In this document: positions 10,117 to 48,300 of the stretch, one piece after another
How positions within the stretch are numbered: position 1 is the first letter of the stretch
How the letters are laid out: each line of letters starts with the position of its first letter
Origin: an uncultured bacterium
Lineage (GTDB): Bacteria > UBP4 > UBA4092
Assembly: GCA_964644695.1 (NCBI GenBank)
Contig: CAZXWN010000001.1
Span: 118,869 to 182,868, forward strand
Direction: 5' to 3'
DNA length: 64,000 bases
Translations under genes and position numbers: made by a program
The notes under the pieces: generated by a model
Database searches by the model: none
What the model saw: only the letters and a program-made list of their open reading frames with translations
What the model was told of the DNA's origin: nothing

Positions 10117-10128
10117 AAGTGTACTCCC

Positions 10129-15080: not shown

Positions 15081-15458
15081 ATGAATACTCATCCAAATAC
15101 CACAATATTGGTTGTTGATGATGATGAAGCCATCCGTGATACTTTGCGGGAAATATTTCTTCGCGATGGGTTTAATACTGAGATAGCTGAAAATGGATAT
15201 ATAGCTACTCGGATCGTTCGTGAAAAATGGCTGGATTTAGTTTTTCTTGATTTTGAGTTACCAGGTCAAAACGGAATAGATGTGCTCAAAGAGATTAAGC
15301 AAATCAATATTAATTTACCGGTTGTTATGTTAACTGGTTATTCTGGAGAAGAAATTAATACTTGGGCAATTAATGCTGGCGCTTTTGAGCTATTACGTAA
15401 GCCTATTCAATTAAGTCAGATAAGACAGACTATTCATAAAATTTTATTGAACATGTAA
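15081..15458 (+). CDS. Stand-alone response-regulator receiver (CheY-like) protein
   Basis: ILVVDDDEAIRDTLREIF acidic pocket, phospho-acceptor Asp in LVFLDFELPG, and T and K motifs (VVMLTGYSG, LRKP). 125 aa with no output domain. Confidence 0.7.
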   Translation: MNTHPNTTILVVDDDEAIRDTLREIFLRDGFNTEIAENGYIATRIVREKWLDLVFLDFELPGQNGIDVLKEIKQININLPVVMLTGYSGEEINTWAINAGAFELLRKPIQLSQIRQTIHKILLNM

Positions 15459-15548
15459 TCCAGCCAAGTAAACCTTAGTCGTACCATGAATGTAATATCT
15501 TAATGAACTTCGGTTTCGGCTATTTACACTAAGTCGTAGGAGTTTTGT

Positions 15549-16409: not shown

Positions 16410-16436
16410 ACCAATCATTACTATTTGGGAGGTTAT

Positions 16437-17894
16437 ATGAAATTCAAACAAAAATCTCTAAAATCTCTATTATCAGGTGGAATCCTGATAATGTCAGTTG
16501 TTTTTACGATTCCAGCAATTGGTGCTGAACAAGCTACAAAGTCGGGTCCAGCAGCATTTGAATTGCAGAAAAGTTTTATATCTGTAATTAAGAGAGTGAA
16601 ACCTTCCGTTGTTGATATAAGTGCTAAAAAAATAGTGACACGCCAACAAACCCAACAAGATCCTTTTGGTGGAATGTTCGACGATCCTATGTTCCAACAG
16701 TTTTTTAGACGTTTTCCCCCTTCTGCCCCCCAGCGACAGGAATTACAGAGTCGGGGTTCAGGAGTAATTATCCGTAAAGATGGTTATATCCTCACCAATA
16801 ATCATGTAGTCGCTCAAGCCGATCAATTAACTGTCACTTTGAGTGATGGACGAACTAAAGAAGCAAAGATTATTGGAAATGATGAGAGTACTGACTTGGC
16901 GGTAATCAAGGTTGATGGAGATAATTATTCTGAAGCAGAATTGGGTGATTCAGACGTTTTGGAAGTAGGCCAAATTGTGTTTACTTTTGGTTCTCCTTTT
17001 TCTTTTTCAGGTTCTGTATCACAAGGTATCATTTCTGGGATGGGAAGAGAATTAGGTCTTTCCCAGTATGAAAATCTAATTCAAACAGATGCAGCAATGA
17101 ATCCCGGTAACAGTGGGGGACCTCTGGTAGATTTGAATGGTCGAATTGTTGGTATTAATAAGGCTATAGCTACTCAGGGTGTTGCTCAATCTGCTGGTCT
17201 TGGTTTCGCTATTCCCATAAATTTAGCAAGGCAGGTAATGGGTGATTTAATTCAGAATGGTAAATGGACTCGTGGCTATCTGGGTATTTTCATGGATGAA
17301 TTAAATGCTGAAAAAGCACAACAAATGGGATTGTCTCAGAATAAGGGCGTTTTGGTTGCAAAAGTAGTTGAGAATAGTCCTGCGGCCAACTCTGGATTAA
17401 AAGAATATGACGTAATTATCAGTTTTAATAATAAGCCTGTTGAGACTGTTTATGAATTGCAAAGTATGGTTGCTATGACCAAGGCATTACAAACGGTCCC
17501 TGTAAAAGTGATTCGAGATGGTAAAGAGGTCGTTCTAAATGTGAAGATTGGTGAACGGACTGACGAATCAGATGCCTTGGCAAGTGATTCGTATAAGAAA
17601 TGGGGGCTTACCTTACAACTACTATCTGAGAATTTGGCCAAGCAAAGAGGTGTAAACTATATCGCAAATACACTCATCATTACTGCAGTGGATCAGGATT
17701 CTCAAGCCTTCCAACTGGGCTTTAGAGAAAATGATATTATTTTGGAAATAGACCGCAAACCTGCCAAGGATTTGAAAGAAATAATAAAGTCCTTCTCAGC
17801 TAAAAAATCAGGTGAAAAAATTCTTTTCAGGACACTCTCACAACAGGGTGCCTATAAGATAATATCTTTCCCTGTTCCAGAAAAAGATAAATAA
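16437..17894 (+). CDS. htrA: Periplasmic serine endoprotease of the DegP/HtrA (Do) family with two PDZ domains
   Basis: GGGAGG RBS 5 nt upstream of ATG 16437. Signal peptide, catalytic triad context (TNNHVV, DLAVIKV, GNSGGPLVD), then PDZ regions. Confidence 0.85.
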   Translation: MKFKQKSLKSLLSGGILIMSVVFTIPAIGAEQATKSGPAAFELQKSFISVIKRVKPSVVDISAKKIVTRQQTQQDPFGGMFDDPMFQQFFRRFPPSAPQRQELQSRGSGVIIRKDGYILTNNHVVAQADQLTVTLSDGRTKEAKIIGNDESTDLAVIKVDGDNYSEAELGDSDVLEVGQIVFTFGSPFSFSGSVSQGIISGMGRELGLSQYENLIQTDAAMNPGNSGGPLVDLNGRIVGINKAIATQGVAQSAGLGFAIPINLARQVMGDLIQNGKWTRGYLGIFMDELNAEKAQQMGLSQNKGVLVAKVVENSPAANSGLKEYDVIISFNNKPVETVYELQSMVAMTKALQTVPVKVIRDGKEVVLNVKIGERTDESDALASDSYKKWGLTLQLLSENLAKQRGVNYIANTLIITAVDQDSQAFQLGFRENDIILEIDRKPAKDLKEIIKSFSAKKSGEKILFRTLSQQGAYKIISFPVPEKDK

Positions 17895-17910
17895 GGCTGA
17901 TTGTAATTAA

Positions 17911-17950
17911 AAGCCGTTACCGAAATAATCGGTAACGGCTTTTCTTTTTA
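17911..17950 (+). terminator. Intrinsic terminator after htrA
   Basis: 12-bp stem aagccgttaccg / cggtaacggctt, 7-nt loop, then TTCTTTTT. Confidence 0.6.
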
Positions 17951-18004
17951 ACATTACAATAGTAGATATTAATAAAAGTAATTTGATATAGGGCTTGGTG
18001 AAGC

Positions 18005-19864
18005 ATGAAAGCTAAAAACATATTTGATCAATTTGATAAGTCCCCTCTATCGTTTATTCGAATAAGCATTCGAACTAAATTATTACTATCATTGATATTT
18101 TTACTCGTTGCGTCGTTATTGGCCATCGCATACTTTTCCATGCGAATTGTCGAAGATCAGTTTTATAAAATGAGTCAGGACCGAGTGGAAGGCGCTCTGC
18201 GTGCAATCAGCACTGAATTGGATTTGCGGCATAAGGATGTTGTCCAAAAGTTGGGACAGACAGCAAAAATTGTTGATTTAAAAAGAAAAATATTACTTAG
18301 GACGGATGATGGTTCACCTGACTATGCTGGATTAGCCCTTCAATTAAACGATATCAAAGAATCAACAGGACTTGATTTGTTGGAGTTGTGTGATAAAGAC
18401 GGAATATTGTTGGCATCAGGGCATGAGCCTGGTAGAGCAGGAGAAGATCGTACGAAAGATCCATTATTCATTTCTGCCATAAGTGGTGTAACAGTTGTTA
18501 ACATCGTAAGACAGCAAATGTTATCTGAAAACTTCCTGGCCATTAAATCCGCAGTGCCTATTGAACAAAGAGGTGAGGTCATTGGTGTTTTGATGGGTGG
18601 ATATGTTTTGAATCGTGAGTATCTAAAAAGACTTCATCGTCTCAGCGCTGCTGAAGTTATATTGCTGCGTCCTGAGGCGGCTTCCATGAGTTCAATTCAG
18701 ACTCCAAGTGGGGATGATGATGCTGGTTTATATATAGAGCCCGATTTTATCAAGCGATCCTTATCCACCAAAGATATAAAGATATCATCATTTCGATTGA
18801 AAGGTGATTATTATATAGCCGGCGTACATAAACTCAAAGGATCTAATAAAGTTCTTGGTTCGATGGTGGTACTAGTGTCTAACCAGGTGATTGAACAGAC
18901 GGTAAGAGAATTAAATCATGGTTTTATTACAGTCACTGCAGTAGCTTTATTACTTGCTGTTTTGATTGGTTATTTAACTGCCCGCAGGATTACACGACCC
19001 GTTCAAGCACTTGTAGATGGAGCTGTGGCTATTGCACAAGGTAACTACGAACAGGAGATACCTGTTAAAGGTAAAGATGAAATAGCTACCTTGATTAAGG
19101 CTTTTAATTACATGGCTCATGAGTTGAAAGATAACCGGGAAAAGCTAGTTACAGCAATAAAAATGGCTGAATGGCGGGAAGTGGCGCGCCGCATTGCCCA
19201 TGAAATCAAAAATCCATTAACTCCAATTGCTCTGTCAATTGAAAATCTCAGGCGATCGTACCGAGATAAAGATGATGATTTGGAAGAAACTTTTAATGAG
19301 TCGACGAAGACCATTCTTGAAGAAGTCCATAATCTGCAAAAGATTGTAGATGAATTTTCTGCCTTTGCCCGTATGCCAAAATTAAGGAAAGAGTGGATGG
19401 ATCTTCAGGAGTTACTTGATAGCATGGTTTTTCTTTATGAGAACATGCAGGATAACGTAAAAATAAAAATTGAATATTTGAGTAAAATCCCACCTCTCTA
19501 TGCAGATTGTGAACAGTTGCGAAGAGCTTTCTCCAATTTAGTAAGGAATGCCATTGATGCCATGCCAGATGGGGGGGATTTGATAATTCAAGCTGTTGAG
19601 GAAGATAAAAATCCTCCTTCACATTATATACAGCTTGAGTTTATTGATAATGGAATAGGAATTTCAGAAGAAAATCTGAAAAAAATGTTTATTCCTTATT
19701 ACTCTACCAAACAAAAGGGAACAGGATTAGGGCTTTCTATCGTTGAGAAAATCATCAACGAGCATGGTGGTAACATCAAAGTCGAATCAACCTTAGGTAA
19801 AGGAACAAAATTCACAGTTCGATTACCTCTGTTGCAGCCAGAAGCTACCGATGAAACCAGTTAA
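18005..19864 (+). CDS. Sensor histidine kinase (two TM helices, large periplasmic domain, HAMP, HisKA, HATPase_c)
   Basis: H-box HEIKNPLTPI, N/G boxes (NAIDAM, DNGIGI, GTGLGLSI). 619 aa. Confidence 0.75.
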   Translation: MKAKNIFDQFDKSPLSFIRISIRTKLLLSLIFLLVASLLAIAYFSMRIVEDQFYKMSQDRVEGALRAISTELDLRHKDVVQKLGQTAKIVDLKRKILLRTDDGSPDYAGLALQLNDIKESTGLDLLELCDKDGILLASGHEPGRAGEDRTKDPLFISAISGVTVVNIVRQQMLSENFLAIKSAVPIEQRGEVIGVLMGGYVLNREYLKRLHRLSAAEVILLRPEAASMSSIQTPSGDDDAGLYIEPDFIKRSLSTKDIKISSFRLKGDYYIAGVHKLKGSNKVLGSMVVLVSNQVIEQTVRELNHGFITVTAVALLLAVLIGYLTARRITRPVQALVDGAVAIAQGNYEQEIPVKGKDEIATLIKAFNYMAHELKDNREKLVTAIKMAEWREVARRIAHEIKNPLTPIALSIENLRRSYRDKDDDLEETFNESTKTILEEVHNLQKIVDEFSAFARMPKLRKEWMDLQELLDSMVFLYENMQDNVKIKIEYLSKIPPLYADCEQLRRAFSNLVRNAIDAMPDGGDLIIQAVEEDKNPPSHYIQLEFIDNGIGISEENLKKMFIPYYSTKQKGTGLGLSIVEKIINEHGGNIKVESTLGKGTKFTVRLPLLQPEATDETS

Positions 19865-19865
19865 A

Positions 19866-21758
19866 TTAATTGCGTAGCTGATTAGCTTTAAGAGCTTCCT
19901 GGTCAGCTTTCCAATTATCTCCAACTGAGTGGTAAAAGTTGGAGAGTAATTGATGATATTCTGGTTTAGTTGGATATAGATCACAAGCTGCTTTGTAATT
20001 GGTTTCGGCTTGGAGTAGATTTCCTGATAACTCATAAGCCTTGGCTAAATCAGCTCTTAAAAAAGCCGTCTTAGGATTCAGTTCTACGGATTTTTTTAGA
20101 ATCGGAATCCCTTGTGCAAAATCGCCTAAACTGACCAAAGTATTCCCTAAATGTTGTTGGTATTCAGATTGATTAGGCATATTCTTTACTGCTTTTTGAA
20201 ACGAATCAATAGAGCTTCTAATTTCACCAGTACTGAGTCTGTTTTGTCCTTGCATGAAATACACTTGAGCTTTGAAATTGGGTAATACCCAACCTAAAAG
20301 ATAAATGGCCATAATCAAAATCAGAGAGGGTGTAATAATTAAAAACCAGGTGTTAGGTTGCCGTCTCCATACAATATCCCATGGTCCCGGTTCAGGCACA
20401 AACTCAGCCTGACAGGCTGAATATAATCCACCCAAAACAATGCAGCCAATCCAGAATAAATCCTTCCAATAAAAACCAAACCCCACGAATGAGTCTGTAA
20501 AAAAGGCGGCTGTGGCTGCGTAAAAAATAACGAATTGAAGTTGGACATCAGGTCTGGTTAATTTGCGCCATCTCAAGAGTGGCCAGATCAAGACGGTTAA
20601 AAATAATACTGAGAATCCAATGCATTGGAATATGCCACCTTCCACCCATGTCTGGATAAAGGTGTTGTGAGCATATCTGGTTTCACCTACACCGACTGGT
20701 TTATATTGTCCATATATAGTACCGAAATTTCCTAAACCCGCTCCTAATATGGGACGGTCTTTAATCATGTCCATTGACATGGACCAGTAATTAATACGTT
20801 CTTGTGTTGTAGACTGACCGGATTTGATACGATTTGTGATTGACTCATTTTTTTGTGGGGCGGGGGATTGATATTGACAAACAATAAATATAACTAATAT
20901 TCCCAAAAGACTGGTTGTGAACCACACCTTCATCTGGAGTAATTTCTTCTTGTCTATAAGAATTGCAAAGATAACTAATGCGATGATTGTCGCCAGAATT
21001 CCACCTCTGGATGCACTCAGTAACAAGCTGGTTCCCATCAGAGCTATGGACAGAGTCGTGAGAATCTTTTTTTGCAGCGAGCATGTGTCGAATAGATAAC
21101 CCATTGCTAATGGAATACAGATTGCCAATAAGAGGGCAAATAGGTTGGGATTTCCAAATGTTCCTGTAACACGATGGGATTCGAGTGTGAATTGAATCCC
21201 AGACAGAATCCGAGGGCTTAGTTCTGTTTGCACTTGGGGAAGCAGAGCCAATTGTTGATTGAATTGGAAAAGATACTGATAAAGTCCAATGATTGCCTCA
21301 AACGCACCAACCAGAACTAATACTCCAATCAAAGTGAAACGAAATTTTCTCTGAGGATACTCTGTTTCCAATTCATGTTCGTGCAGGGTTTTTAACTGAT
21401 GGTTTGCGGTTAATAAATAGGTGATAAATCCCAATAATAGAATATTCCATGATTGGAAACTGTTGTATCGATAGACTGAGCTTAGTAAGCCAAAAGAAGA
21501 TAAAACAAGAAATGCACTGAATGCCAGGGTGATTGGATTATATCTTTGAATTTTCCATTGGAATCCTTTTCTTCTGACTGTTTGATACAGAAGAAGCATC
21601 ATCAGGCAACAGGGTATTACAAAAGTTAATGTGGGCGTGATATCAAAGGGTACTAAAGCGATTAATCGGGGATAGATAGCAATGATGCTAAGTAATAATA
21701 GGCTGACATGAAATAATTCATTCATTGGACATAGTTTCCTTATCAGATGATAATTCAC
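19866..21758 (-). CDS. Polytopic membrane protein with an O-antigen ligase (Wzy_C)-like domain and C-terminal TPR repeats
   Basis: About 10 TM helices and an SRGG motif typical of O-antigen polymerase/ligase. The C-terminal 180 aa are TPR-like. The true start is probably Met-12 (about 21725), reducing the overlap with scpB. Confidence 0.55.
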   Translation of the reverse strand: MNYHLIRKLCPMNELFHVSLLLLSIIAIYPRLIALVPFDITPTLTFVIPCCLMMLLLYQTVRRKGFQWKIQRYNPITLAFSAFLVLSSFGLLSSVYRYNSFQSWNILLLGFITYLLTANHQLKTLHEHELETEYPQRKFRFTLIGVLVLVGAFEAIIGLYQYLFQFNQQLALLPQVQTELSPRILSGIQFTLESHRVTGTFGNPNLFALLLAICIPLAMGYLFDTCSLQKKILTTLSIALMGTSLLLSASRGGILATIIALVIFAILIDKKKLLQMKVWFTTSLLGILVIFIVCQYQSPAPQKNESITNRIKSGQSTTQERINYWSMSMDMIKDRPILGAGLGNFGTIYGQYKPVGVGETRYAHNTFIQTWVEGGIFQCIGFSVLFLTVLIWPLLRWRKLTRPDVQLQFVIFYAATAAFFTDSFVGFGFYWKDLFWIGCIVLGGLYSACQAEFVPEPGPWDIVWRRQPNTWFLIITPSLILIMAIYLLGWVLPNFKAQVYFMQGQNRLSTGEIRSSIDSFQKAVKNMPNQSEYQQHLGNTLVSLGDFAQGIPILKKSVELNPKTAFLRADLAKAYELSGNLLQAETNYKAACDLYPTKPEYHQLLSNFYHSVGDNWKADQEALKANQLRN

Positions 21759-33617: not shown

Positions 33618-33694
<77 letters not shown>

Positions 33695-33708
33695 ATTGCA
33701 ACTTCAAG

Positions 33709-33743
33709 TCCCATGTTAAATAGTTATTAACATGGGATTTTTT
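33709..33743 (+). terminator. Intrinsic terminator immediately after tRNA-fMet
   Basis: 11-bp perfect stem tcccatgttaa / ttaacatggga, 7-nt loop, then T6. Confidence 0.65.
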
Positions 33744-33765
33744 AATGAATAATACTGGTAACTGA

Positions 33766-33794
33766 TTGACAGTAAATTGCGTCCTTGGTAGAAT
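33766..33794 (+). promoter_or_regulatory. Sigma-70-type promoter for the tRNA-Met and tRNA-Leu unit
   Basis: TTGACA, a 17-nt spacer, then TAGAAT (same architecture as the fMet promoter). Confidence 0.5.
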
Positions 33795-33841
33795 TTTCTT
33801 TCTACTGCCGTTGTAAACTAAAGCTGTAGAGGCTTATGTGT

Positions 33842-33917
33842 GGCGGGATAGCTCAGTTGGTAGAGCAAGCGGTTCATACCCGCTGTGTCGGGGGTTCAAA
33901 TCCCTCTCCCGCTACCA
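33842..33917 (+). tRNA. tRNA with CAT anticodon (elongator tRNA-Met, or possibly tRNA-Ile2 needing lysidine)
   Basis: GGCGGGATAGCTCAGTTGGTAGAGCAAGCGGTTCATACCCGCTGTGTCGGGGGTTCAAATCCCTCTCCCGCTACCA. Cloverleaf with anticodon loop TTCATAC. Confidence 0.85.
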
Positions 33918-33952
33918 TTTATATTGAAAACCTCGTTATTTATACCTCCCTG

Positions 33953-34037
33953 GCCCGGGTGGTGGAATTGGCAGACACGTACGTTTGAGGGGCGTATGGA
34001 GCAATCCGTGCGGGTTCAAATCCCGCCCCGGGCACCA
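33953..34037 (+). tRNA. tRNA-Leu (anticodon GAG), class II with a long variable arm
   Basis: GCCCGGGTGGTGGAATTGGCAGACACGTACGTTTGAGGGGCGTATGGAGCAATCCGTGCGGGTTCAAATCCCGCCCCGGGCACCA. Anticodon loop TTGAGGG, 14-nt variable arm, encoded CCA. Confidence 0.85.
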
Positions 34038-34136
34038 TTTATTCTTCTCTCTCCTTTTATTTTTTGAATTTAGGGAACTTCTCCTTTCATGAATACATTA
34101 CTGATTGTATAGGCGTTCATGTTTTAGGAGGATATT

Positions 34137-34421
34137 TTGATGTCCACAAAAGTAATAATTAATAAAAATGGCAGTTTAAAAGTAGAAGGAACAGATTTTA
34201 CTGTTACTGATTTGGAAGGTAATGAGTACTCTTTGGGTGGAAGAACCCGGATATCTTTCTGTCGTTGTGGGGCTAGTAGTACTCAGCCTTTTTGTGATGG
34301 AAAACATCGTGAAATTGGATTTTCAACATTTTTAAACACGAGGAGTTTACCTCCATTATCTCCCCAAACAGAGAATTTACCTGAAACGAATGAAAACATA
34401 CCATTGAAGAATAATAAGTGA
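34137..34421 (+). CDS. CDGSH-type iron-sulfur domain protein (mitoNEET-like zinc-finger CDGSH)
   Basis: AGGAGG RBS. CRCGASSTQPFCDGKH matches the C-x-C-x2-S-x3-P-x-C-D-G-S/K-H 2Fe-2S binding signature. 94 aa. Confidence 0.6.
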   Translation: MMSTKVIINKNGSLKVEGTDFTVTDLEGNEYSLGGRTRISFCRCGASSTQPFCDGKHREIGFSTFLNTRSLPPLSPQTENLPETNENIPLKNNK

Positions 34422-34445: not shown

Positions 34446-34485
34446 AGAATCCCTGATTAAATAGGATATTCAGGGATTTTATTGT
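34446..34485 (+). terminator. Probable intrinsic terminator after the CDGSH gene
   Basis: 9-bp stem aatccctga / tcagggatt with a 13-nt loop, followed by a T-rich run. Confidence 0.45.
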
Positions 34486-34544
34486 TTGGTATAAATTGTT
34501 GATACTGTTAAAATGCTTTTAGTTTTGATTTGTGTGGATAATTA

Positions 34545-37310
34545 TTGATGTGGTTAAAACTTCGAATCATATTTTATACGGTTGCTTTAATGTTGTTAAT
34601 GCTATTGGGTGTTTATTTCTCAACTCAATATATATTAACAACTCAATTTACCGCTTTAAAAAAAGCCCACCTTTACGAAAAAATTAATATTGTAGAAAAT
34701 GTGTTGCAGAATGAAATAGATAAATTCAATAAATCTGTCCACCAATATTCTCAAAAACAGACTTCATTTGATTCAAAAGAATTATCAATATTTGATGAAA
34801 TACCTGAAATACAGTGGGTGATTACTAGAAATTTAAATCAGTCTTTTCAGATAAATGGAAATCCGAAAATATCAACTAATCTAACTAAGGATTGGAAAGA
34901 TTGTATTGCTCATCTTATACAGGATTATGACAAATCACCTCTATTATCAAGAAGTGGATGCTTCATACATAAAGAACAGATGTATTTGGTATATGAAGAG
35001 AGAATAAATAGTCCGAATCAGGAAAAATTAGAAACAAGTCTTTATATTAAGCCTTTCGATATTTACAGTGGTGGATTAATTAGTAAAAGTCTTACCGAGA
35101 ACTATCATCTTTCTTTCATTCCTATACCCACTCCTGATAAAGCAACATACTCAATTTATCAAGATTTACTTAGTAGTAAATCATCAACCCAATTTGTTTT
35201 TAGTACACAGACTGTCTATGGTTATTTTCTATTGAATGACGTATCCGGTAGCCCCATGCTACTAGGTAGATTGGATATGGATAGGGCTCTCTATATTAAT
35301 ACTCAAGTCAAGCTTCGAAACATTATCTTATTAATATCTGTAGGCAGTTTGTTTGTTTCAATAGTTTTTATTGGTTTGATTTGGAAGCTTCTAATAACGC
35401 GTATTGGAGTTCTTAAAGATGAAATATTGAAGATAGGAACACAAGATGATTTGACTGCCAGAGTAAGTGTTCAAGGCGAAGATGAATTAACACAACTCTC
35501 AATGGCTGTTAATCATACTTTAGAGCGACTAAATGATTCTCATGTTGAATTGATGGCCAGAGAAGAGTATTTATCGGCGATTGCAGAAGTGAATGATTTG
35601 TTATCAAAATATCCCTTAAGTAAGGAATTATATACCCGAATACTTGAACCTCTTGGGAAAATAGCTAAAGCTGACCAGGTTTTTTATTTTGACATTATGA
35701 CGGGTGGAGATAAAACCATTCATGCGACACCCATAGGCTCTTGGACCTCTGAAGGGATTTCCAATATCGAGAGTGATCCTCAGGTACAGGATTTGCGAAT
35801 TGAGCATTGGCTTGGCCCCATGTTTGTTCATTTAGAGTATGGTCAAATTGTTCATGGTCATACAACTGAAATGCCAGAGCCTTTTCAAACTTTTCTAAAA
35901 AAATATGATAACAAGACGATTTTATTATTACCCATGATGTTGGAAGGGAAATGGATAGGTTTTCTTGCTTTTAATCACATTCGACAGGAAAAGAATTGGA
36001 AGGCAAAAGAAATAACAACTTTGATAACTGCAGCTCAAGTGTTAACTCTGGCTATTAATAGAAAGGTGCAAGAGGAAAAACATTTTCATTTATATGAAAT
36101 AATGCAGAAAGACATGAAAATAGCCAGTGAAGTCCAAAGTTACTTGATACCCTCAGATCTTCAAGTATTCAGTGATTTGATGGTTTGTTCCAAATATTCA
36201 CCATCATCTCAAATTGGTGGAGATTTGTACGATGTGATAAAAGTCGGGCTGCATGATTATTTTGTTTGTATGGGAGATGTCTCTGGGCACGGTGTTCAAT
36301 CGGCTTTGCAAATGTCTGCAGTAAAAGCAATGATCAGTTCAATTGTAAAAAGTAGTAGAGGTAGTATTGCTCCCTATGAAATTGCAAATCGTTTGAATGA
36401 ATTGCTATTACCAGTACTTTCTTCTCACAGTTATTTAACTATTATTATGGGGTATCTAAACACAGTAAAGGGTGAGTTTCATTATATAAATGCGGGGCAT
36501 CCCCCCCTGTTGCTTTACAAGACTAAAAACCATCAACCAGAATACCATAGGGCAGAAGGTTCCATTCCTATTGGTTGGATGCCTATGATGAATTATTCTT
36601 TAAGTGATGAATCTTTGGTTCAGCTAGAGTCTGGAGATATATTGATTCTTTATACGGATGGTTTTTTAGAGGCAGAAGATGAGCATGGAGAACAACTGGG
36701 AATTGCAGGGATAAAGAATATTTTGGCGGAAAAACTGCATCCCAGTGATTGTCTCTTATTACCACATCACTTTTTCCAATACCTTATACAGAATAATTAT
36801 CAAGTAAATAAGGATGATTTTTCATTACTCACTCTGCAGATGTATGACTATGAAAAAAGGACTTTAACATTAGTTGTTCCACCAACGGTTATGGATCCAG
36901 CTGATTCCAACCATATGTCACAGCAATTAAGTCAAATCCGCATTCAGATTAATAATCAGGTACAGGAGTGGACAGGTGATTCACATTATGCCAGCAGAGC
37001 GGAATTAGCCACCCATGAGTATCTGATGAATATTATCAGGCATGCTTATAAGGATCAGAAGAAAAGAGATGCCATCATCCAGTTGAAAGAAAGAAATGGA
37101 TTGATTTCATTGAAAATAATAGATTCAGGAATTAAATGGGAGCCTGATATATCGCCCGGCAGTCCTTATTCTGTATCTGATTCTATGTCATTAGAAGGGC
37201 GTGGGTTAAAAATTATTCAAGATTTAATACTGGATTATCAATATAAGCGTTATGAACCCTATAATGAAGTAATAATGGTTATGAATCCTAATGCTAAGAT
37301 AAATAGATAA
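34545..37310 (+). CDS. Membrane sensor fused to an RsbU-type PP2C phosphatase and an RsbW-type GHKL kinase (TM - periplasmic domain - TM - HAMP - GAF-like - SpoIIE/PP2C - HATPase_c)
   Basis: 921 aa. Two TM helices flank a periplasmic domain of about 225 aa. HAMP-like amphipathic segment after TM2. PP2C motifs GGDLYDV / CMGDVSGHGVQSAL / LYTDGF. C-terminal GHKL N-box EYLMNIIRHAY and G-boxes IIDSGIKW, GRGLKII. Confidence 0.7.
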   Translation: MMWLKLRIIFYTVALMLLMLLGVYFSTQYILTTQFTALKKAHLYEKINIVENVLQNEIDKFNKSVHQYSQKQTSFDSKELSIFDEIPEIQWVITRNLNQSFQINGNPKISTNLTKDWKDCIAHLIQDYDKSPLLSRSGCFIHKEQMYLVYEERINSPNQEKLETSLYIKPFDIYSGGLISKSLTENYHLSFIPIPTPDKATYSIYQDLLSSKSSTQFVFSTQTVYGYFLLNDVSGSPMLLGRLDMDRALYINTQVKLRNIILLISVGSLFVSIVFIGLIWKLLITRIGVLKDEILKIGTQDDLTARVSVQGEDELTQLSMAVNHTLERLNDSHVELMAREEYLSAIAEVNDLLSKYPLSKELYTRILEPLGKIAKADQVFYFDIMTGGDKTIHATPIGSWTSEGISNIESDPQVQDLRIEHWLGPMFVHLEYGQIVHGHTTEMPEPFQTFLKKYDNKTILLLPMMLEGKWIGFLAFNHIRQEKNWKAKEITTLITAAQVLTLAINRKVQEEKHFHLYEIMQKDMKIASEVQSYLIPSDLQVFSDLMVCSKYSPSSQIGGDLYDVIKVGLHDYFVCMGDVSGHGVQSALQMSAVKAMISSIVKSSRGSIAPYEIANRLNELLLPVLSSHSYLTIIMGYLNTVKGEFHYINAGHPPLLLYKTKNHQPEYHRAEGSIPIGWMPMMNYSLSDESLVQLESGDILILYTDGFLEAEDEHGEQLGIAGIKNILAEKLHPSDCLLLPHHFFQYLIQNNYQVNKDDFSLLTLQMYDYEKRTLTLVVPPTVMDPADSNHMSQQLSQIRIQINNQVQEWTGDSHYASRAELATHEYLMNIIRHAYKDQKKRDAIIQLKERNGLISLKIIDSGIKWEPDISPGSPYSVSDSMSLEGRGLKIIQDLILDYQYKRYEPYNEVIMVMNPNAKINR

Positions 37311-37349
37311 AGCAGGATTACTTTCAAGCTATCAGTGCCGGAGGCAAGT

Positions 37350-37682
37350 ATGACTCTTCAATTTGATAAACAAGGAAAAATTGGTTTAATACGACTCACA
37401 GGTCCTATTGATGCATCAAATGTGATGGACTTGAAAAAGAAATTTCAAGAGTGGATGAATGAGACCAGTTATTTTGTTATGGATTTAAATCAGGTTGATT
37501 TTATTGATAGTACTGGATTAGGTGGATTAGTAGCCTGTTTGAAATATGCATCTGAAGCGGGTGGAGATCTGAAGATTGCATGCCTCCAACCAAAACCCCG
37601 AATGGTATTTGAAATAACGCGGGCTTTTAAAATATTTGAAGTATATGATGATGTGAATGTTGCAATAGCCAGTTACAAGTGA
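37350..37682 (+). CDS. STAS-domain anti-sigma-factor antagonist (SpoIIAA/RsbV-like)
   Basis: GGAGG RBS 6 nt upstream of ATG 37350 (track ORF starts 37335). FIDSTGLGGL contains the conserved phosphorylatable Ser/Thr of the DST(G) motif. 110 aa. Confidence 0.7.
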   Translation: MTLQFDKQGKIGLIRLTGPIDASNVMDLKKKFQEWMNETSYFVMDLNQVDFIDSTGLGGLVACLKYASEAGGDLKIACLQPKPRMVFEITRAFKIFEVYDDVNVAIASYK

Positions 37683-37707
37683 TGATTGGATATAAACAGG
37701 ATCTCCG

Positions 37708-39096
37708 ATGAAATGTCTTGTTTATTTAGGAGAACATGATACAGCCTGGGCATATCCGTATTTCAAGAAACTTCATCCGGCTATGCTCAATATTTTGAAT
37801 CGTCCTTATATTGATCATTTGTTGGATTTTTTGTGGGGTAATGGGTGTCAGGAAGTTCGGCTTATTTTAGCTAAACCCTCTCCCATGTTAGAAACTCGTT
37901 TATTCGATAGTCATTCCCATAAACTTAAATTAAGTTTTGGATTAGCACAGCCTGAGGATGACTTAGATCATATTTTTCTGAAAAATTGGTCTTTTTGTAA
38001 AGACACAAAATTATTAGTCATTAAAGGCTTTCCCTATTTAGCGGGTACCTTCGAGAGTCTGCTTGAATCAAATAAAGAGTGGGTAATCACAGAAGGTAAA
38101 ACTCGTATTTATTTCATTAACTCCCCCAATACTACTGCAGTCAATTTTAACCGTATCGAAACTGTATTTGTACCCGAGTCTTTAATTGTTTATTCAATTG
38201 ATTCACTGAAAAATTATTATGATTTATGCATGACCCGGTTATCTCTTCTTTTGAATGTGGAATCGAAAAAAGGGGTGTTGAAAGGAATTCAGGTTAATAT
38301 ACCCAAAAACAGTCGATTGGTTGCTCCCACTCTTTTAGGAAATCATTTGTATTTACATAAGATGACACTTATTGGTCCAAATGTTGTGATTGGAAGACAT
38401 GTGAGAATTGATTCGGGTACGAGCATCAAAAACAGTATTGTTTTTAATGATACCTATATTGGTCAGGATTTAGAAGTTAAGAATAAAATTGTTTTTCGGG
38501 ATAGGCTGATTGATCCCATATCCGGAGACATAGTCCACTTAGTTGATTCACGATTAATTGCACGATTGGAAGTTGAAAAAAAACACATCATTCGTCGGAG
38601 ACTTTTCCATATATTTTGGGGAGTGGTCTGGGGAATTGTATGGCTGATTCCGATGCTCCTTATTCATTCCGTATATATATTCTCAAAGAAACAGAACCCG
38701 AAAGAGTCCTTTTATGTAGACCATAACAGGACTCGTATGCTATTTCCAAAGTCTCTCGTAGAACCTGATTCCGGGATAGAGAAGATTTATTATCGTCTAT
38801 CGGGTGACAAATATAGATTGTTACCTGCTGTGCTAAAAGGACATATTGCGTTGGTGGGGCACCAGATGTTAAACATTAATCCAGAAAATTCACGTTATCT
38901 GGATGAACTCCCTTTTTATATCCCTGGAATATTCAGTCTTCCTGAAGCAAACGGTGTATTTGGTCAGAAAGAGCAGGCAGTGGTTGATGAGTTATATTAT
39001 AGTCGTCATTTTTCAGCCGGGCTTGACATGAAAATATTAGTAAAACAGTTGTTACGTCGTTTGTTTGTACCGTGGTCAAATGTTGAGGAGGATTAA
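37708..39096 (+). CDS. Fusion of a degenerate sugar-nucleotidyltransferase-like domain, a left-handed beta-helix, a reentrant/TM segment and a PglC/WbaP-type polyprenyl-phosphate phosphoglycosyl-transferase (Bac_transf) domain with altered catalytic residues
   Basis: N-terminus KKLHPAMLNILNRPYIDHLLDFL..GCQEVRLI aligns with NTP_transferase, but the GGxGTRL loop is replaced (GEHDTAWAYPYF). Hexapeptide repeats at 210-265. Hydrophobic reentrant segment RRRLFHIFWGVVWGIVWLIPMLLI. C-terminus LSGDKYRLLPAVLKGHIALVGHQ aligns with PglC [23 protein letters not shown], and IPGIF/DMKIL with PGITG/DLKI. Asp-Glu becomes Asp-Lys, and PRP becomes HQM. Confidence 0.55.
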   Translation: MKCLVYLGEHDTAWAYPYFKKLHPAMLNILNRPYIDHLLDFLWGNGCQEVRLILAKPSPMLETRLFDSHSHKLKLSFGLAQPEDDLDHIFLKNWSFCKDTKLLVIKGFPYLAGTFESLLESNKEWVITEGKTRIYFINSPNTTAVNFNRIETVFVPESLIVYSIDSLKNYYDLCMTRLSLLLNVESKKGVLKGIQVNIPKNSRLVAPTLLGNHLYLHKMTLIGPNVVIGRHVRIDSGTSIKNSIVFNDTYIGQDLEVKNKIVFRDRLIDPISGDIVHLVDSRLIARLEVEKKHIIRRRLFHIFWGVVWGIVWLIPMLLIHSVYIFSKKQNPKESFYVDHNRTRMLFPKSLVEPDSGIEKIYYRLSGDKYRLLPAVLKGHIALVGHQMLNINPENSRYLDELPFYIPGIFSLPEANGVFGQKEQAVVDELYYSRHFSAGLDMKILVKQLLRRLFVPWSNVEED

Positions 39097-40022
39097 TGCG
39101 ACCTATTCATCCACAGCGGAAACTGCTTGAGATATCAGCTTTTGCTCATATCTTGCGATGGGGTGGAAAGAAAAGGTTTCACTTTGAAAACATAACTTCA
39201 ATGATGCCAATATTAGACAATATTTTGAAGTTGACGGGATTGCATAAGATTGGTGAACGAAATGCGTTGGATGTGATCATCAAAAGAACAGAGATTTCTC
39301 TCAATGATTTACCCGTGGAACTCGATGGAATATCCTTTGTTTTAATCAGTGACTTACACATTGATGGAATGCCAGATAGGCTGATTGAAAAGATACTCTC
39401 AGAATTAAACAACATTTCTTATGACTATTGCTTATTGGGGGGAGATTACCGATTTCGAGTTAGGGGGAGCCCTTTGTTGGCCATCGCTCGCATGAAGGAT
39501 TTGGTCCGTGAATTAAGAAAAAGAACCCCGGTTCTGGGAATATTGGGAAATCATGATGAGTATTATATTGCTGATGAATTAGCCAAACAAGGTGCTGAGA
39601 TGCTCATGAATGAACATGTTCAGCTTTCAAAAGGTGGTAAATCTATTTATCTGGTAGGTCTGGACGATGCTCATTATTATGAGGCGCATGATTTTGAACA
39701 GGCAGAAAATGGAATCCCTGAAGATGGATTTAAACTGCTTTTGTGTCACTCTCCTGAACTTTACAAAGAGGCTTGGAAACGAGGATATCGTTTATATATG
39801 GCGGGACATACTCATGGAGGACAAATTTGTCTTCCTTGGGGAATAGCGGTTGTCCAGAATGCTCGAGTGCCCATGGCAATGGGAAATGGTCTGTGGAGTT
39901 ATAAATCACTACAAGGATATACAACTCCCGGAGCCGGATCTTCAGGTATTCCAGTACGTTTTAATTGCCCACCCGAAATAAGTCTGCTTATTTTGCGGAG
40001 AAAAACTCCATCCATTCAATGA
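39096..40022 (+). CDS. Calcineurin-like metallophosphoesterase (YkuE/MPP family)
   Basis: The start overlaps the upstream stop by 1 nt. MPP motifs DLHID, GGDY, GNHDE, GHTHGGQ. 308 aa. Confidence 0.7.
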   Translation: MRPIHPQRKLLEISAFAHILRWGGKKRFHFENITSMMPILDNILKLTGLHKIGERNALDVIIKRTEISLNDLPVELDGISFVLISDLHIDGMPDRLIEKILSELNNISYDYCLLGGDYRFRVRGSPLLAIARMKDLVRELRKRTPVLGILGNHDEYYIADELAKQGAEMLMNEHVQLSKGGKSIYLVGLDDAHYYEAHDFEQAENGIPEDGFKLLLCHSPELYKEAWKRGYRLYMAGHTHGGQICLPWGIAVVQNARVPMAMGNGLWSYKSLQGYTTPGAGSSGIPVRFNCPPEISLLILRRKTPSIQ

Positions 40023-40074
40023 TTGAAGGAGTATCGAACAAGATCGATCTTGTTCGATACTATTTCGAAACAGA
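40021..40074. repeat. Family-1 palindromic intergenic repeat, copy 2 (intact)
   Basis: GATTGAAGGAGTATCGAACAAGATCGATCTTGTTCGATACTATTTCGAAACA contains the perfect 26-bp palindrome ATCGAACAAGATC|GATCTTGTTCGAT. It sits between convergent genes and overlaps their stop codons. Confidence 0.6.
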
Positions 40075-43544: not shown

Positions 43545-44960
43545 GTGCAAAAGGCCCATTTACTAATAGTCGATGATGAAAAAAATATCATTTCATCGTT
43601 AACACGTCCTCTTACCCGTGAAGGTTATAATATTCGGTCTGCATTAACCGGGCAGGAAGCTTTGGATATTCTTCAAAGAGCTGAGGATGGAACTGAAGAA
43701 GATATTGATATTTTGTTAGTCGATGTTTGGTTGCCTGACATTGATGGTTTACAAGTACTCCAGAAGGCCAAAGAGATTAGTCCGGACATTATACCAATTG
43801 TCATGTCAGGGCATGCCAGCATTGATACGGCTGTAAAGGCTACCAAGTTGGGCGCTTTCGATTTCATGGAGAAACCTCTCAATTTAGATAAAGTGTTACT
43901 TCTGATTGAGCATGCACTTAAATATCGAAGATTAGAGGAAGCTAACAGAGGGTTCCGTCAAGCTATTGAACAGGAATACCAGATTATTGGACAGAGCCAA
44001 CAGGTTCTCGACATGATAGAACGGATTTCCATTGTAGCAGCGACTCCGGGACGTGTCCTCATCGCCGGTGAAAATGGAACTGGAAAAGAATTGGTGGCGC
44101 GTGCTATTCATGCTAACAGTAATCGCCAGGAAGGTCCTTTTATTAAAGTGAATTGTGCAGCCATACCTAATGAACTGATTGAAAGTGAGCTTTTTGGCCA
44201 TGAAAAGGGTTCCTTTACGGGGGCGCATGAAAGAAAAAAAGGTAAGTTTGAGTTGGCTAATGAAGGGACTATTTTCCTGGATGAAATTGGGGATATGAGT
44301 TTACCCACACAAGCAAAGATTCTCCGGGTATTGACTGATAATGAAATAGACAGGGTAGGGGGGACAAGACCTATTCGAGTTGATGTTAGGGTCATTGCCG
44401 CTTCTAACAAAAATCTTGAGGAAGAGATAAAAAAGGGAAACTTCCGAGAAGATTTGTATTATCGCTTAAATGTAATTCCTTTCATGGTACCCCCATTACG
44501 AGAACGTCGTGAAGATATTCCCTTATTAGCGGGGCACTTTCTAAAACTCTATTGCCGTGAGACGCAGACCAAAGCGAGAAAATTTGACACCTCAGCTTAC
44601 AGGGTATTGATGAATTACGCCTGGCCTGGTAATGTACGAGAGCTGAAAAACATTGTTGAGCGTGTGGCAATCCTGACCCGTTCTGATGTGATTGGGGAAC
44701 GTGAAATCTCTAGTGTTTTGCCTCCCTCGGCAGTGATGACACAATCTTCAGTAAATAATACAAATCATGATATTTCCTGTTTTCCAGAAAAAAGCCTCAA
44801 AGAGCTTTGTGAAGAATATGAGAAAAAAGTTATTGTATCAGCATTGAAGGCTCATGATGGGAATGTCAGTAGAACTGCTGAGGTTCTGGATTTGGAACGT
44901 AGTCACCTTTATAAGAAATTGAGGCAATATAATATAAGCAAAGCATCTGATGCCGAATAA
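43545..44960 (+). CDS. Sigma-54-dependent response regulator (NtrC/Fis family: receiver, AAA+ domain and Fis HTH)
   Basis: Receiver (LLVDVWLPDIDG), Walker A GENGTGKE, GAFTGA-type GSFTGA motif, Walker B FLDEIGD, and a C-terminal HTH. Confidence 0.8.
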   Translation: MQKAHLLIVDDEKNIISSLTRPLTREGYNIRSALTGQEALDILQRAEDGTEEDIDILLVDVWLPDIDGLQVLQKAKEISPDIIPIVMSGHASIDTAVKATKLGAFDFMEKPLNLDKVLLLIEHALKYRRLEEANRGFRQAIEQEYQIIGQSQQVLDMIERISIVAATPGRVLIAGENGTGKELVARAIHANSNRQEGPFIKVNCAAIPNELIESELFGHEKGSFTGAHERKKGKFELANEGTIFLDEIGDMSLPTQAKILRVLTDNEIDRVGGTRPIRVDVRVIAASNKNLEEEIKKGNFREDLYYRLNVIPFMVPPLRERREDIPLLAGHFLKLYCRETQTKARKFDTSAYRVLMNYAWPGNVRELKNIVERVAILTRSDVIGEREISSVLPPSAVMTQSSVNNTNHDISCFPEKSLKELCEEYEKKVIVSALKAHDGNVSRTAEVLDLERSHLYKKLRQYNISKASDAE

Positions 44961-46725: not shown

Positions 46726-48300
46726 ATGTTTGAAGAAAATAAACTTATTCTATATTCTCGCAAAAACTTATGGGTTTTGGGGTTATTATTATTTTTATTC
46801 ACAATTGGATTGGTTTATCTTCCTATTCATACCCATTCTTTAACTACTGACGAAGTAGGGGATATCTCAGTTGGTTATGCACAGGCAAGGTATGGTTTAT
46901 ATTTCCTGGATCCTGCTAATCCCCCGTTGATTCGAATGATATATGGAACTGTTGTTGCCTTATGTGAGCCTCTGTCATATAAGGGACCTGAAGTAGAGCT
47001 GATGGATTTTTTCTATTATTCGCGGATGTTCTTTGATTTTAATAAAAGCAGTTTAATTACACTGACCGTTATTTCCCGATATGTTGTTGTCGGACTTATG
47101 CTGCTGACGGGATTTATTCTGTTCAGGTGGGTAAAACAACTTTATGGGATAACTTCAGCGTACATCTCATTTTTCTACTTTATTTTGAATCCAAACGTAT
47201 TAGCACACGGGACGTTGGCAACACTTGATATGGGATTAACTTTTACCTGGTTATTCTATGGTTACATTTTACATAAATGGATTGGAGAACCTGATAAAAA
47301 AGTTAATACTATTTTATTGGGGCTCTCTCTTGGGTTTTGTTTGACGGCAAAATTTACTTCAGTGATTCTTATCCCTTTGACTTGTTTGGTGTTACTATGT
47401 GATCGTTCCTGGATTAAACAGTTTAATGTTAAGTCTGCATTCCTTCATAGCGGTATATTTCTTTTATCTATGTGGATGACTATTTTAGCGGTATATCGTT
47501 TTCATAATATCCAATATGGTTTGCCTTATTGGTTTGTTACGGGGATTAAATTACAGATAAACGATGCAGGTACATATTTCACTTACCTTAATGGAAAGAT
47601 TAGCCAGAGTGCCCCCTGGTATTATTACCTTGAAGCCATTCTCCTTAAGAATCCAATACCTTTTCTTATTGTGATGGTGTGGGGGATTTTCTCAGCATCA
47701 AAACAGAAACTCAAAATGAGCAGGGATGTTTTAATTAGTTTGGTATTTATTGGAGGACTGTTAATCGTCTTTTCTCTATCCGGCAAAAAAATGCTGGGTA
47801 TTCGTTATCTTCTTCCCATGTATCCCTTTATTGCACTTCTAATAGCTCGCCTATTTCATACACAACAACACTGGAAATATCGAACCCACATTCATCTACT
47901 GATGTTGATCGGATGTTTAATATCTACTCTGTCTATAAATCCTCATTATTTGTCATATTTCAATATCATTGCAGGTGGGCCAAGTAAAGGTCATCGTTAT
48001 TTACTGGATTCAAATTTAGACTGGAGCCAGGATACGCTGCGTCTAAAGGAATACATGTATGTAAACAATTTGGATTCCATATATTTTGTTTATTCAGGAT
48101 ATTTGATGCCAGAGGTGTATGGTATCCAGACATATCCTCTCTATGACGATACTGTTAAAGGTATTGTGGCGATTAGTGTGAATCGGTTATATGGGATACA
48201 GGCTGCTTCACCTGAATATATTCATCAATATGAGTGGTTAAAAAATAAAAAATATCTGGGACGTGTAGGATACTCAATATGGTTGTATGATACAAGATAG
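46726..48300 (+). CDS. GT-C fold glycosyltransferase (ArnT/PMT-like, family 39/83-like) polytopic membrane protein
   Basis: An early periplasmic-loop DE motif (TTDEVGD), at least 11 TM helices, and a soluble C-terminal domain. 524 aa. Confidence 0.5.
   Translation: MFEENKLILYSRKNLWVLGLLLFLFTIGLVYLPIHTHSLTTDEVGDISVGYAQARYGLYFLDPANPPLIRMIYGTVVALCEPLSYKGPEVELMDFFYYSRMFFDFNKSSLITLTVISRYVVVGLMLLTGFILFRWVKQLYGITSAYISFFYFILNPNVLAHGTLATLDMGLTFTWLFYGYILHKWIGEPDKKVNTILLGLSLGFCLTAKFTSVILIPLTCLVLLCDRSWIKQFNVKSAFLHSGIFLLSMWMTILAVYRFHNIQYGLPYWFVTGIKLQINDAGTYFTYLNGKISQSAPWYYYLEAILLKNPIPFLIVMVWGIFSASKQKLKMSRDVLISLVFIGGLLIVFSLSGKKMLGIRYLLPMYPFIALLIARLFHTQQHWKYRTHIHLLMLIGCLISTLSINPHYLSYFNIIAGGPSKGHRYLLDSNLDWSQDTLRLKEYMYVNNLDSIYFVYSGYLMPEVYGIQTYPLYDDTVKGIVAISVNRLYGIQAASPEYIHQYEWLKNKKYLGRVGYSIWLYDTR

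Follow-up and report, generated by a model that had tools for sequence, protein, structure and literature searches.

Organization of the locus

We analysed a 64-kb stretch of contig CAZXWN010000001.1 (positions 118,869 to 182,868 of the forward strand; assembly GCA_964644695.1), hereafter the window, from an uncultured bacterium of the UBP4 lineage. Positions 34548-40022 carry four genes, all on the + strand, whose predicted products are a membrane sensor with fused phosphatase and kinase domains (gene 1), a STAS protein (gene 2), a protein joining two enzyme folds that lack their catalytic signatures (gene 3) and a metallophosphoesterase (gene 4). Relatives of gene 3, here termed G3fam, recur beside STAS genes in uncultured bacteria. 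This recurring pairing suggests an undescribed control of glycan initiation, a step at which G3fam would, as a strong candidate, be what a STAS switch acts on.

The genes are spaced by 39 nucleotides (nt), 25 nt and a 1-nt overlap (TAATG), and a consensus scan found no + strand terminator-like site inside the block. This tight spacing, together with a hairpin on the 5′ side and a palindrome on the 3′ side (Table 1), confirmed the bracketed four-gene operon that had been proposed in an earlier inspection of the letters and their open reading frames (ORFs), hereafter the sequence-only reading. The 110-amino acid (aa) product of gene 2 was also called by a gene caller on an identical metagenomic contig.

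Table 1. Coordinates of the operon genes, their predicted domains and the flanking elements in the window
Feature	Position	Strand	Description
Hairpin 5′ of the operon	34446-34480	+	11-bp stem, 13-nt loop, then U-run; -14.4 kcal/mol, z = -1.4
Sigma-70-like promoter candidate	34486-34514	+	TTGGTA-17-TAAAAT, extended-10 TG; about 30 nt upstream of gene 1
Gene 1 ORF	34545-37310	+	Listed start TTG; ATG at 34548 gives 920 aa
Gene 1	34548-37310	+	Predicted membrane sensor, PP2C Ser phosphatase and GHKL Ser kinase in one chain, 920 aa
HAMP	35382-35537	+	PF00672, 4.9e-07, 30.4 bits (cut-off 25)
GAF-like region	35628-36056	+	PF01590, 17-18 bits, under cut-off (22.4); weak, unproven
PP2C/SpoIIE phosphatase domain	36255-36839	+	PF07228, 4.6e-34, passes cut-off
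RsbW-type GHKL Ser-kinase domain	36924-37280	+	PF13581 HATPase_c_2, 1.3e-12, above cut-off
Gene 2 ORF	37335-37682	+	Listed start GTG; likely start ATG 37350 after GGAGG, 110 aa
Gene 2	37350-37682	+	Single-domain STAS, 110 aa; PF01740, 2.4e-20; TIGR00377, 8e-20, 70.7 bits (cut-off 53.45)
Gene 3 ORF	37708-39096	+	462 aa
Gene 3 domains	37708-39096	+	Pseudo-nucleotidyltransferase, aa 1-185; left-handed beta-helix, 186-288; re-entrant helix-break-helix, 290-324; phosphoglycosyl transferase-like, 325-462 (all predicted)
Gene 4 ORF	39096-40022	+	308 aa
Gene 4	39096-40022	+	Predicted cytoplasmic calcineurin-like metallophosphoesterase, YaeI/LpxG type; start overlaps gene 3 stop by 1 nt
Perfect 30-nt palindrome	40031-40060	both	Between gene 4 and a convergent 5-formyltetrahydrofolate cyclo-ligase gene

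Signalling proteins encoded by genes 1 and 2

The product of gene 1 has the domain order transmembrane (TM)-HAMP-(GAF-like)-PP2C-kinase. Two hydrophobic segments, at approximately aa 5-26 and 258-282 (920-aa numbering), enclose about 230 residues without any Pfam match, indicating that the protein is a membrane sensor. All the metal-binding motifs of the PP2C domain (GGD, GDVSGHG, TDG and DD) are intact, as are the kinase boxes (N-box HEYLMNIIRH, DSG and GRGL). The closest solved relative of the PP2C-kinase part is the RsbU-RsbW dual domain of Rv1364c (3ke6, E 6.7e-14). The domain calls of the sequence-only reading were sustained for SpoIIE, HATPase_c_2, HAMP, STAS and Metallophos, as well as for the three-part composition of gene 3, the GAF assignment alone staying below threshold.

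In gene 2, the predicted phospho-acceptor is Ser54 (codon 37509-37511), which lies within the sequence FIDSTGLG. The motif DS[TSGA]GLG, accompanied by an unusual IVxCLK motif, is common to all G3fam-linked STAS proteins, indicating that they constitute one subfamily.

Gene 3 defines a family with two recognizable enzyme folds

An exhaustive HMMER search recovered 1235 matches, with 85 cluster representatives at E<1e-30, almost all of which measure about 460 aa and align over their full length. The member nearest to gene 3 is only 32-35% identical, and near-identical copies of gene 3 itself were found in independent metagenomes. Word-index homology searches were too insensitive for this divergent lineage, returning only its own cluster for gene 3, 14 proteins for the 61-sequence family profile and two for gene 1.

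Pfam recognized gene 3 poorly: Bac_transf (PF02397) reached 26.0 bits against a cut-off of 27, over profile positions 94-175 only, Hexapep and left-handed beta-helix (LbH) matches also fell under their cut-offs, and NTP_transferase (PF00483) was not detected on the window protein. The Pfam matches anticipated by the sequence-only reading for this gene were therefore sub-threshold or missing, although the folds that they stand for were upheld by other means. A profile of 61 members matched PDB sequences of CugP (3e-27), PglC (8e-12, over the whole length), WbaP (1e-9) and RmlA (about 5e-10); hhalign gave a 97.4% probability for G3fam against the canonical phosphoglycosyl transferases (PGTs) encoded beside its members; and an AlphaFold model of gene 3, built on that alignment, had a pLDDT of 90.9 and a pTM of 0.78. 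Together, these three lines of evidence confirm the domain reading despite the marginal Pfam scores, with a nucleotidyltransferase (NT, GT-A-like) domain and then an LbH, and with the PGT catalytic-domain fold present in the protein.

We found no counterpart of G3fam as a family-level model in Pfam or NCBIfam, nor in the searchable literature (subscription journals lay outside the scope), where looking for a pseudo-PGT or for the NT/Hexapep/Bac_transf/STAS combination led only to papers on Anabaena; the annotation paper on monotopic PGTs (monoPGTs) makes no mention of pseudoenzymes or STAS. Members carry the source labels 'NDP-sugar synthase' and 'ADP-glucose pyrophosphorylase', which are contradicted by the motif analysis below. 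The STAS and PGT-like domains of the window are encoded by separate genes, 25 nt apart, and not fused; among the 150 best representatives, the longest of 507 aa, no G3fam protein was long enough to hold a STAS domain.

Catalytic signatures are lost and membrane determinants kept

We counted residues in an alignment of 61 members and aligned the family profile with solved PglC; this placed the PglC sequence LSLDELPQL...VGPRP opposite LSLDKfPLL...VGN of G3fam. Asp-Glu is the conserved catalytic dyad of monoPGTs (PMC10942596). The Asp is kept in 52/61 members, and the Glu position is occupied by Lys in 46 and by Arg in 11 (57/61 for both); window gene 3 has Asp367-Lys368 (nt 38806-38811) in place of the dyad. 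Asn stands in place of the first Pro of PRP in 52/61 members, with VGN or VGH instead of VGPRP. The hhalign comparison with the neighbouring canonical PGTs, in all of which KFRSM, PRIT and PGITxxWQ are invariant, shows gaps or other residues in G3fam at these segments.

The NT half has lost its signatures as well. The GxGTR loop of CugP (AAGKGTR) aligns with a variable, Gly-free stretch of G3fam, positions 8-13 being variable in all 61 members, with a conserved Trp (60/61) at its end, and the Gly-Asp metal-binding motif of the NT fold has become Gly-Phe (Gly107 followed by Phe).

The features that govern membrane association are retained. Two rules describe the re-entrant helix of PglC: it is preceded by basic residues, and its break carries a branched-chain residue with Pro, the motif being [S/I/L/V]-Pro (PMC6133551). 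Gene 3 has Arg296-298 before the helix and Ile314-Pro315 at the break, the Pro being conserved in 45/61 members. The only hydrophobic segment of the protein spans 28 residues (299-326), and the AlphaFold model contains helices at 290-311 and 313-324 with a break between them. If the predicted helix is re-entrant as in PglC, gene 3 would be a monotopic, cytoplasm-facing protein, and therefore the whole of it would lie on the cytoplasmic side, where the STAS and kinase domains are.

The residues that substitute for the canonical ones are themselves highly conserved: Asp367 (52/61), Lys/Arg368 (57/61), Gly384 (61/61), Asn385 (52/61), Tyr404 (60/61) and Pro406 (59/61). Conservation at the replaced positions indicates a selected, altered function rather than random decay. 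Our default reading is that gene 3 is a regulatory pseudoenzyme, in which both enzyme folds appear without catalytic signatures throughout the family, and changed catalysis is its main rival. The pseudo-enzyme assignment of the sequence-only reading is thereby supported.

Gene 4 is a predicted metallophosphoesterase

Gene 4 matches Metallophos (PF00149; 2.6e-08, 35 bits, cut-off 21.5) and keeps the motifs DLHIDG, GGDY, GNHD and GHTHGG intact. Its matches to the NCBIfam models of YaeI (1.2e-25, 90.5 bits) and LpxG (1.1e-18, 67.7 bits) lie under the respective equivalog cut-offs of 188 and 350. The protein contains no hydrophobic segment, and no solved homologue was detectable by sequence.

Genes for NPP-type phosphodiesterases / nucleotide pyrophosphatases (PF01663) occur near G3fam in three exopolysaccharide-type loci (L012:10631-11776, L004:14415-15551 and L011:13538-15232). 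These may be a non-homologous counterpart of gene 4, a hint that an activity cleaving pyrophosphates or phosphodiesters is repeatedly required.

STAS genes recur beside G3fam in related loci

We collected the genomic contexts of G3fam by looking up the encoding contigs, by scanning species-representative genomes and by scanning metagenomes with queries from a four-sequence alignment; scanned loci were annotated with hidden Markov models (HMMs) built from the first, Pfam-annotated set. Collapsing copies at least 90% identical left 27 loci, and the 26 with at least 1.5 kb of upstream sequence were used for the counts. The hosts are Cloacimonadota, Victivallales/Victivallaceae (Lentisphaerota) and UBP4-like metagenome-assembled genomes (MAGs).

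A STAS gene lies directly upstream of G3fam in 17/26 loci, within 1.5 kb of it in 20, and anywhere in the cluster in 22. Of the 26 loci, 21 encode within 1.5 kb a small canonical PGT of 226-248 aa that has kept every motif. The usual surroundings are Wzx/Wzy exopolysaccharide loci, with genes for GT2 and GT4 glycosyltransferases, a WecG-type fusion, Wzz-like, Poly_export and Wzy_C proteins; location in a polysaccharide locus was found for 16-21 of the 26 related loci, and not for the window.

Neither a PGT nor a kinase accompanies the pair everywhere. STAS adjoins G3fam even without an adjacent PGT in the window, L013 and L024, and a GHKL gene is missing from 17 of the 22 STAS-bearing loci. 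Kinase or phosphatase genes occur in five loci (L002, L007, L008, L013 and the window's own lineage): L002 has separate GHKL and REC-PAS-PP2C genes, L007 a GHKL gene, and fused REC-PP2C-GHKL genes head L008 and L013. Since STAS and G3fam adjoin without a nearby kinase and without a nearby PGT, we argue that these two genes form the module's core.

A third PGT-related protein is encoded in the loci that we designated class A. This WecG/GT26-type glycosyltransferase resembles canonical Bac_transf at its N-terminus, over the ~90 initial residues that comprise the re-entrant helix, and its gene lies just upstream of the true PGT (L002:5041-6897, L007:1700-3070, L011:5584-6831 and L012:5501-6865).

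A syntenic relative keeps all four genes

Locus L013, from an NCBI MAG, shares its neighbourhood with the window; L014, L023 (labelled UBP4_UBA6127) and L028 (labelled Aminicenantes UBA4085) match it at 90% identity or more. The order in L013 is transketolase, CDGSH, REC-PP2C-GHKL, a 776-aa GT4-type glycosyltransferase, STAS, G3fam and Metallophos, followed by a convergent MTHFS (5-formyltetrahydrofolate cyclo-ligase) gene, an ABC transporter, an ABC-2 permease, a 300-aa protein and a sigma-54 response regulator. The order PP2C-kinase, STAS, G3fam, metallophosphoesterase is thus kept, with the glycosyltransferase inserted between PP2C-kinase and STAS in L013. Identities between the window and L013 within the module are 36% for the PP2C-kinase part, 60% for STAS, 33% for G3fam and 49% for Metallophos; for the surrounding genes they are 64% (transketolase), 49% (CDGSH), 58% (MTHFS), 82% (ABC transporter), 74% (ABC-2 permease) and 74% (sigma-54 response regulator).

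The sensor input differs, being REC in L013 and TM-HAMP-GAF-like in the window. The window has lost the 776-aa glycosyltransferase, a protein also encoded at the head of many class-A loci, and its version is therefore the most reduced form of the module, with signalling parts, pseudoenzyme and phosphoesterase only. The conservation check suggested with the sequence-only reading thus had a positive outcome: the L013/L023 lineage keeps all four genes, STAS accompanies G3fam in 22 of the 26 loci, and no sigma factor emerged as a conserved partner.

In L028 the G3fam gene is split into two ORFs (9001-10430; 232 + 220 aa), the L013 copy being intact; the split reflects a true pseudogene or else an error of assembly or a false frameshift.

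Flanking elements and genomic surroundings

The hairpin at the 5′ side is likely the terminator of the upstream CDGSH gene and would mark the operon boundary. This role is suggested by its position after that gene, its folding energy being unexceptional in itself; the consensus terminator scan missed it, with a loop limit of 8 nt against its loop of 13 nt. The promoter candidate is a consensus match only, and such matches in the region are not above shuffled expectation. Inspecting by eye the 120 nt 5′ of gene 1 for a sigma-54 promoter, we rejected the candidate TGGTAT...TTGT, which has the wrong spacing and lacks the GC. On the 3′ side, the palindrome folds with -24 and -21.5 kcal/mol (z = -5.5 on the + strand and -5.0 on the - strand) and is a probable bidirectional terminator; it occurs as a single copy in the window and was rejected as a dispersed repeat.

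Directly 5′ of the operon, positions 33618-34421 hold two tRNA-Met genes and one tRNA-Leu gene, then the gene for the small CDGSH-type iron-sulfur protein, which is syntenic in L013. A phage or defence-island reading was set aside, as the flanks are housekeeping genes syntenic with the relative. A sigma-54-dependent REC-AAA+-HTH activator is encoded 3.5 kb downstream of the operon (43545-44960), and its counterpart in L013 is 73.5% identical.

Three large membrane proteins are encoded at 19866-21758 (Wzy_C+TPR), 46726-48300 (PMT_2) and 58938-61016 (TMEM260-like+TPR), none adjoining the operon. These are of polyprenyl-phosphate-sugar-using or O-antigen-ligase type, indicating that the organism handles lipid-linked glycans. 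Adjoining NTP_transferase and APH-family kinase genes at 215-2248 resemble the AmgK/MurU sugar-recycling pair. Finally, 15081-19864 encodes in a row a receiver domain on its own, an M48 peptidase, a protease of HtrA-like type and a dCache-HAMP histidine kinase; between this receiver and the REC domain of the REC-PP2C-kinase protein in L013 there is 33% identity, which is an ordinary level of similarity between REC domains.

A partner-switching-type module with a pseudoenzyme output

We lean, at somewhat better than even confidence, towards reading the operon as a non-sigma module of partner-switching type, with a membrane-interface pseudoenzyme as its output. An extracytoplasmic signal would tip gene 1 between its kinase and phosphatase activities and so set the phosphorylation state of Ser54 in the STAS protein. 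Unphosphorylated STAS would then engage the gene 3 protein, either by direct binding, as has been proposed for SypA, or through displacement from the kinase domain. The gene 3 protein, as a regulatory non-catalytic paralogue of a priming PGT, would in turn govern the entry of polyprenyl phosphate and nucleoside diphosphate (NDP)-sugar into a glycan pathway by modulating the PGT or access to polyprenyl phosphate. Its GMPPA/eIF2B/GlgD-like N-terminal half might sense the NDP-sugar. In most relatives, the priming PGT is the next gene, within a Wzx/Wzy exopolysaccharide locus. In the lineage of the window, the module would have become detached from such a locus and coupled to a YaeI/LpxG-like pyrophosphatase or phosphodiesterase. 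Gene 4 may cleave a nucleotide-sugar or a lipid-pyrophosphate intermediate, and this is the weakest step of the proposal.

Several observations weigh against this interpretation. A tblastn search with nine canonical sequences found no canonical PGT in the 64-kb window, and there are no PGT, glycosyltransferase, export or other polysaccharide genes beside the operon. Control of a glycan priming step, as offered by the sequence-only reading, therefore draws on the relatives and not on the immediate neighbours of the window operon. Four loci (L009, L018/L025, L032 and L035) have no STAS, and gene adjacency cannot tell which protein a STAS contacts. Within the syntenic block, gene 3 has diverged fastest, with 33% identity where its neighbours have 49-82%. 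The strong conservation of Asp-Lys/Arg, Gly-Asn, Tyr-x-Pro, Glu413 and Glu428 leaves room for a changed catalytic activity. A metallophosphoesterase stands beside G3fam in only two lineages, so that the role of gene 4 is the least constrained. Furthermore, loci were annotated with home-made HMMs and an ORF finder instead of curated gene calls, the relatives are MAGs and metagenomic contigs, and the evidence is computational throughout.

Gene 3 could instead be an active enzyme of altered chemistry, for instance a polyprenyl-phosphate-linked hydrolase or a transferase using another donor, that STAS regulates directly. Its new active site would be built on the PGT scaffold from the conserved Asp-Lys/Arg pair and the other residues specific to the family. 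Family-specific residues are highly conserved where the canonical ones have gone, the re-entrant helix, and with it access to the membrane interface, is kept, and the gene is translationally coupled to an intact phosphoesterase, all of which would suit an enzyme. However, none of the phosphate- and Mg-binding motifs known from monoPGTs is left (KFRSM, the dyad Glu and PRP), the nucleotide-binding loop of the N-terminal domain has been lost too, and a canonical PGT is encoded next door in 21/26 loci, so that a second priming activity is not needed. We thus regard an active gene 3 as improbable, although it deserves to be kept in view.

Alternatively, the operon could be a canonical partner switch, in which the kinase of gene 1 acts as anti-sigma factor for a sigma factor encoded elsewhere, STAS is the antagonist, and genes 3 and 4 are cargo or members of the regulon. 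The set of RsbU/RsbW/RsbV-type domains is indeed complete, the nearest solved homologue, Rv1364c, belongs to a sigma-F system, and L040 has a similar fused membrane sensor with STAS genes and no G3fam. As the sequence-only reading had stated, however, there is no sigma factor nearby: a Pfam-type scan of non-nested ORFs of at least 100 aa over the whole 64-kb window found no sigma-70-family gene, and the syntenic L013 locus has none either. No switched partner of this kind was thus present in the window or in L013, and one could be encoded elsewhere. Moreover, the adjacency of STAS and G3fam in loci of which 17/22 lack a GHKL gene is hard to explain if STAS serves the kinase alone, and membrane tethering of the kinase makes sequestration of a sigma factor less obvious, though not impossible. 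On this evidence, a sigma-directed switch appears distinctly unlikely.

That the operon is a decayed fragment of an exopolysaccharide locus in which gene 3 drifts without function seems very unlikely: the window lacks the 776-aa glycosyltransferase of the L013 lineage as well as the PGT, WecG and export genes that other relatives have, no gene of the block has diverged more than gene 3, and its homologue is split in the L028 MAG, but the ORF is intact and keeps most of the residues conserved in the family, namely W14, N31, P33, D40, P315, D367, K368, G384, Y404, P406, F409, E413, E428, Y431 and D440, the AlphaFold model is confident, near-identical copies exist across independent metagenomes, and the tight spacing and the start/stop overlap are kept.

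Beyond the preferred reading of the window operon, a partner-switching-type module with a pseudoenzyme output, we tentatively put forward a broader possibility, which we consider less probable than that reading. The NT-LbH-pseudoPGT family might be a hitherto unrecognized class of direct STAS targets, double pseudoenzymes that sit at the membrane interface beside the priming PGT and gate the entry of polyprenyl phosphate and NDP-sugar into exopolysaccharide synthesis according to STAS phosphorylation; the module of the window, made up of sensor, STAS, pseudoenzyme and pyrophosphatase, would then be autonomous, perhaps serving lipid-carrier homeostasis and not a single polysaccharide.

Comparison with known systems

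The closest analogue is SypE/SypA of Vibrio fischeri. SypE is a kinase-REC-PP2C fusion, and the STAS protein SypA acts downstream, below transcription, on Syp polysaccharide, through a target that is unknown (PMC10120452). As in the window, an RsbW-type kinase and a PP2C phosphatase share one polypeptide, and the phospho-Ser protein is a single-domain STAS. The syp system also includes a sigma-54-dependent response regulator (PMC10120452), and a sigma-54 activator is syntenic 3.5 kb downstream of the window operon. Unlike gene 1, which is predicted to be membrane-bound and has PP2C before the kinase (REC-PP2C-kinase in the L013 orthologue), SypE is cytoplasmic with the order kinase-REC-PP2C; in addition, the syp switch sits in a polysaccharide locus, whereas the window operon is outside one. 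To our knowledge, no NT-LbH-pseudoPGT gene has been described in syp. Two class-A loci, L002 and L007, likewise contain genes for sigma-54 activators, an arrangement reminiscent of SypG in syp.

The closest mechanistic precedent, in which STAS is tied to a monotopic PGT-type domain, is provided by All4160/HenR/Alr3423 of Anabaena and XssP of Synechocystis. In All4160, STAS is fused to Bac_transf; a SpoIIE-type phosphatase and kinases of the GHKL type determine its phosphorylation, which governs polysaccharide formation without a sigma factor, and the STAS-PGT link is regarded as largely cyanobacterial and rare elsewhere (PMC13555669). In All4160 and XssP, STAS is fused to a presumably active PGT, whereas in the window it is encoded by a separate gene and the PGT-like domain lacks catalytic motifs and is fused to NT-LbH. 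Also, those proteins are cyanobacterial, whereas G3fam loci come from Cloacimonadota, Victivallales and UBP4-like MAGs.

In Myxococcus xanthus, EpsW activates the PGT EpsZ by direct binding (PMC12802240). The likeness is that a small phospho-signalling protein exerts post-translational control of exopolysaccharide at the priming PGT; however, EpsW is a single-domain response regulator, its target EpsZ is a large monoPGT that is active, and the system includes no STAS, PP2C/GHKL pair or pseudoenzyme.

Rv1364c of Mycobacterium tuberculosis (RsbU-RsbW-RsbV) joins phosphatase and kinase in one chain in the same order as gene 1, but differs in its fused STAS and in having no glycan-related partner. 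It is cytoplasmic, has a PAS input and is linked to sigma-F regulation. A further fused sensor is encoded at L040:380-3101, where the gene for a dCache-PP2C-GHKL membrane sensor precedes a tandem pair of STAS genes, with cysS next, on a contig with SusD-like genes and no G3fam.

Inactive NT-LbH paralogues are known in GMPPA, GlgD and eIF2B gamma/epsilon, which work within complexes, are soluble and are paired with an active NT paralogue. Gene 3 differs from these in that its NT-LbH part is fused to a predicted membrane-anchored pseudo-PGT and that its family is paired genomically with an active PGT.

These precedents contradict two claims of novelty in the sequence-only reading: a phosphatase-kinase fusion is already found in SypE, Rv1364c and the L040 sensor, and a partner switch directed at polysaccharide in SypE/SypA and All4160. 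With both the fusion and the polysaccharide-directed switch known, the novelty is the double-pseudoenzyme partner.

Implications

If the broader possibility is true, a partner switch would for the first time have a defined output that is neither a sigma factor nor an enzyme, and STAS-to-PGT coupling, thought to be cyanobacterial and in cis, would also occur in trans in several uncultured phyla. Post-transcriptional control of the first committed glycan step, which consumes lipid carrier, is only now emerging (EpsW-EpsZ in 2025, All4160 in 2026). In this context, the STAS/G3fam pairing offers a concrete, testable candidate for what SypA-like STAS proteins bind, the target of SypA itself being unknown; it also takes the coupling of STAS to PGT outside the cyanobacteria and supplies a clear case of a regulatory pseudoenzyme in bacteria. 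The four-gene version found in the window, free of biosynthetic genes, would be a compact system for reconstitution.

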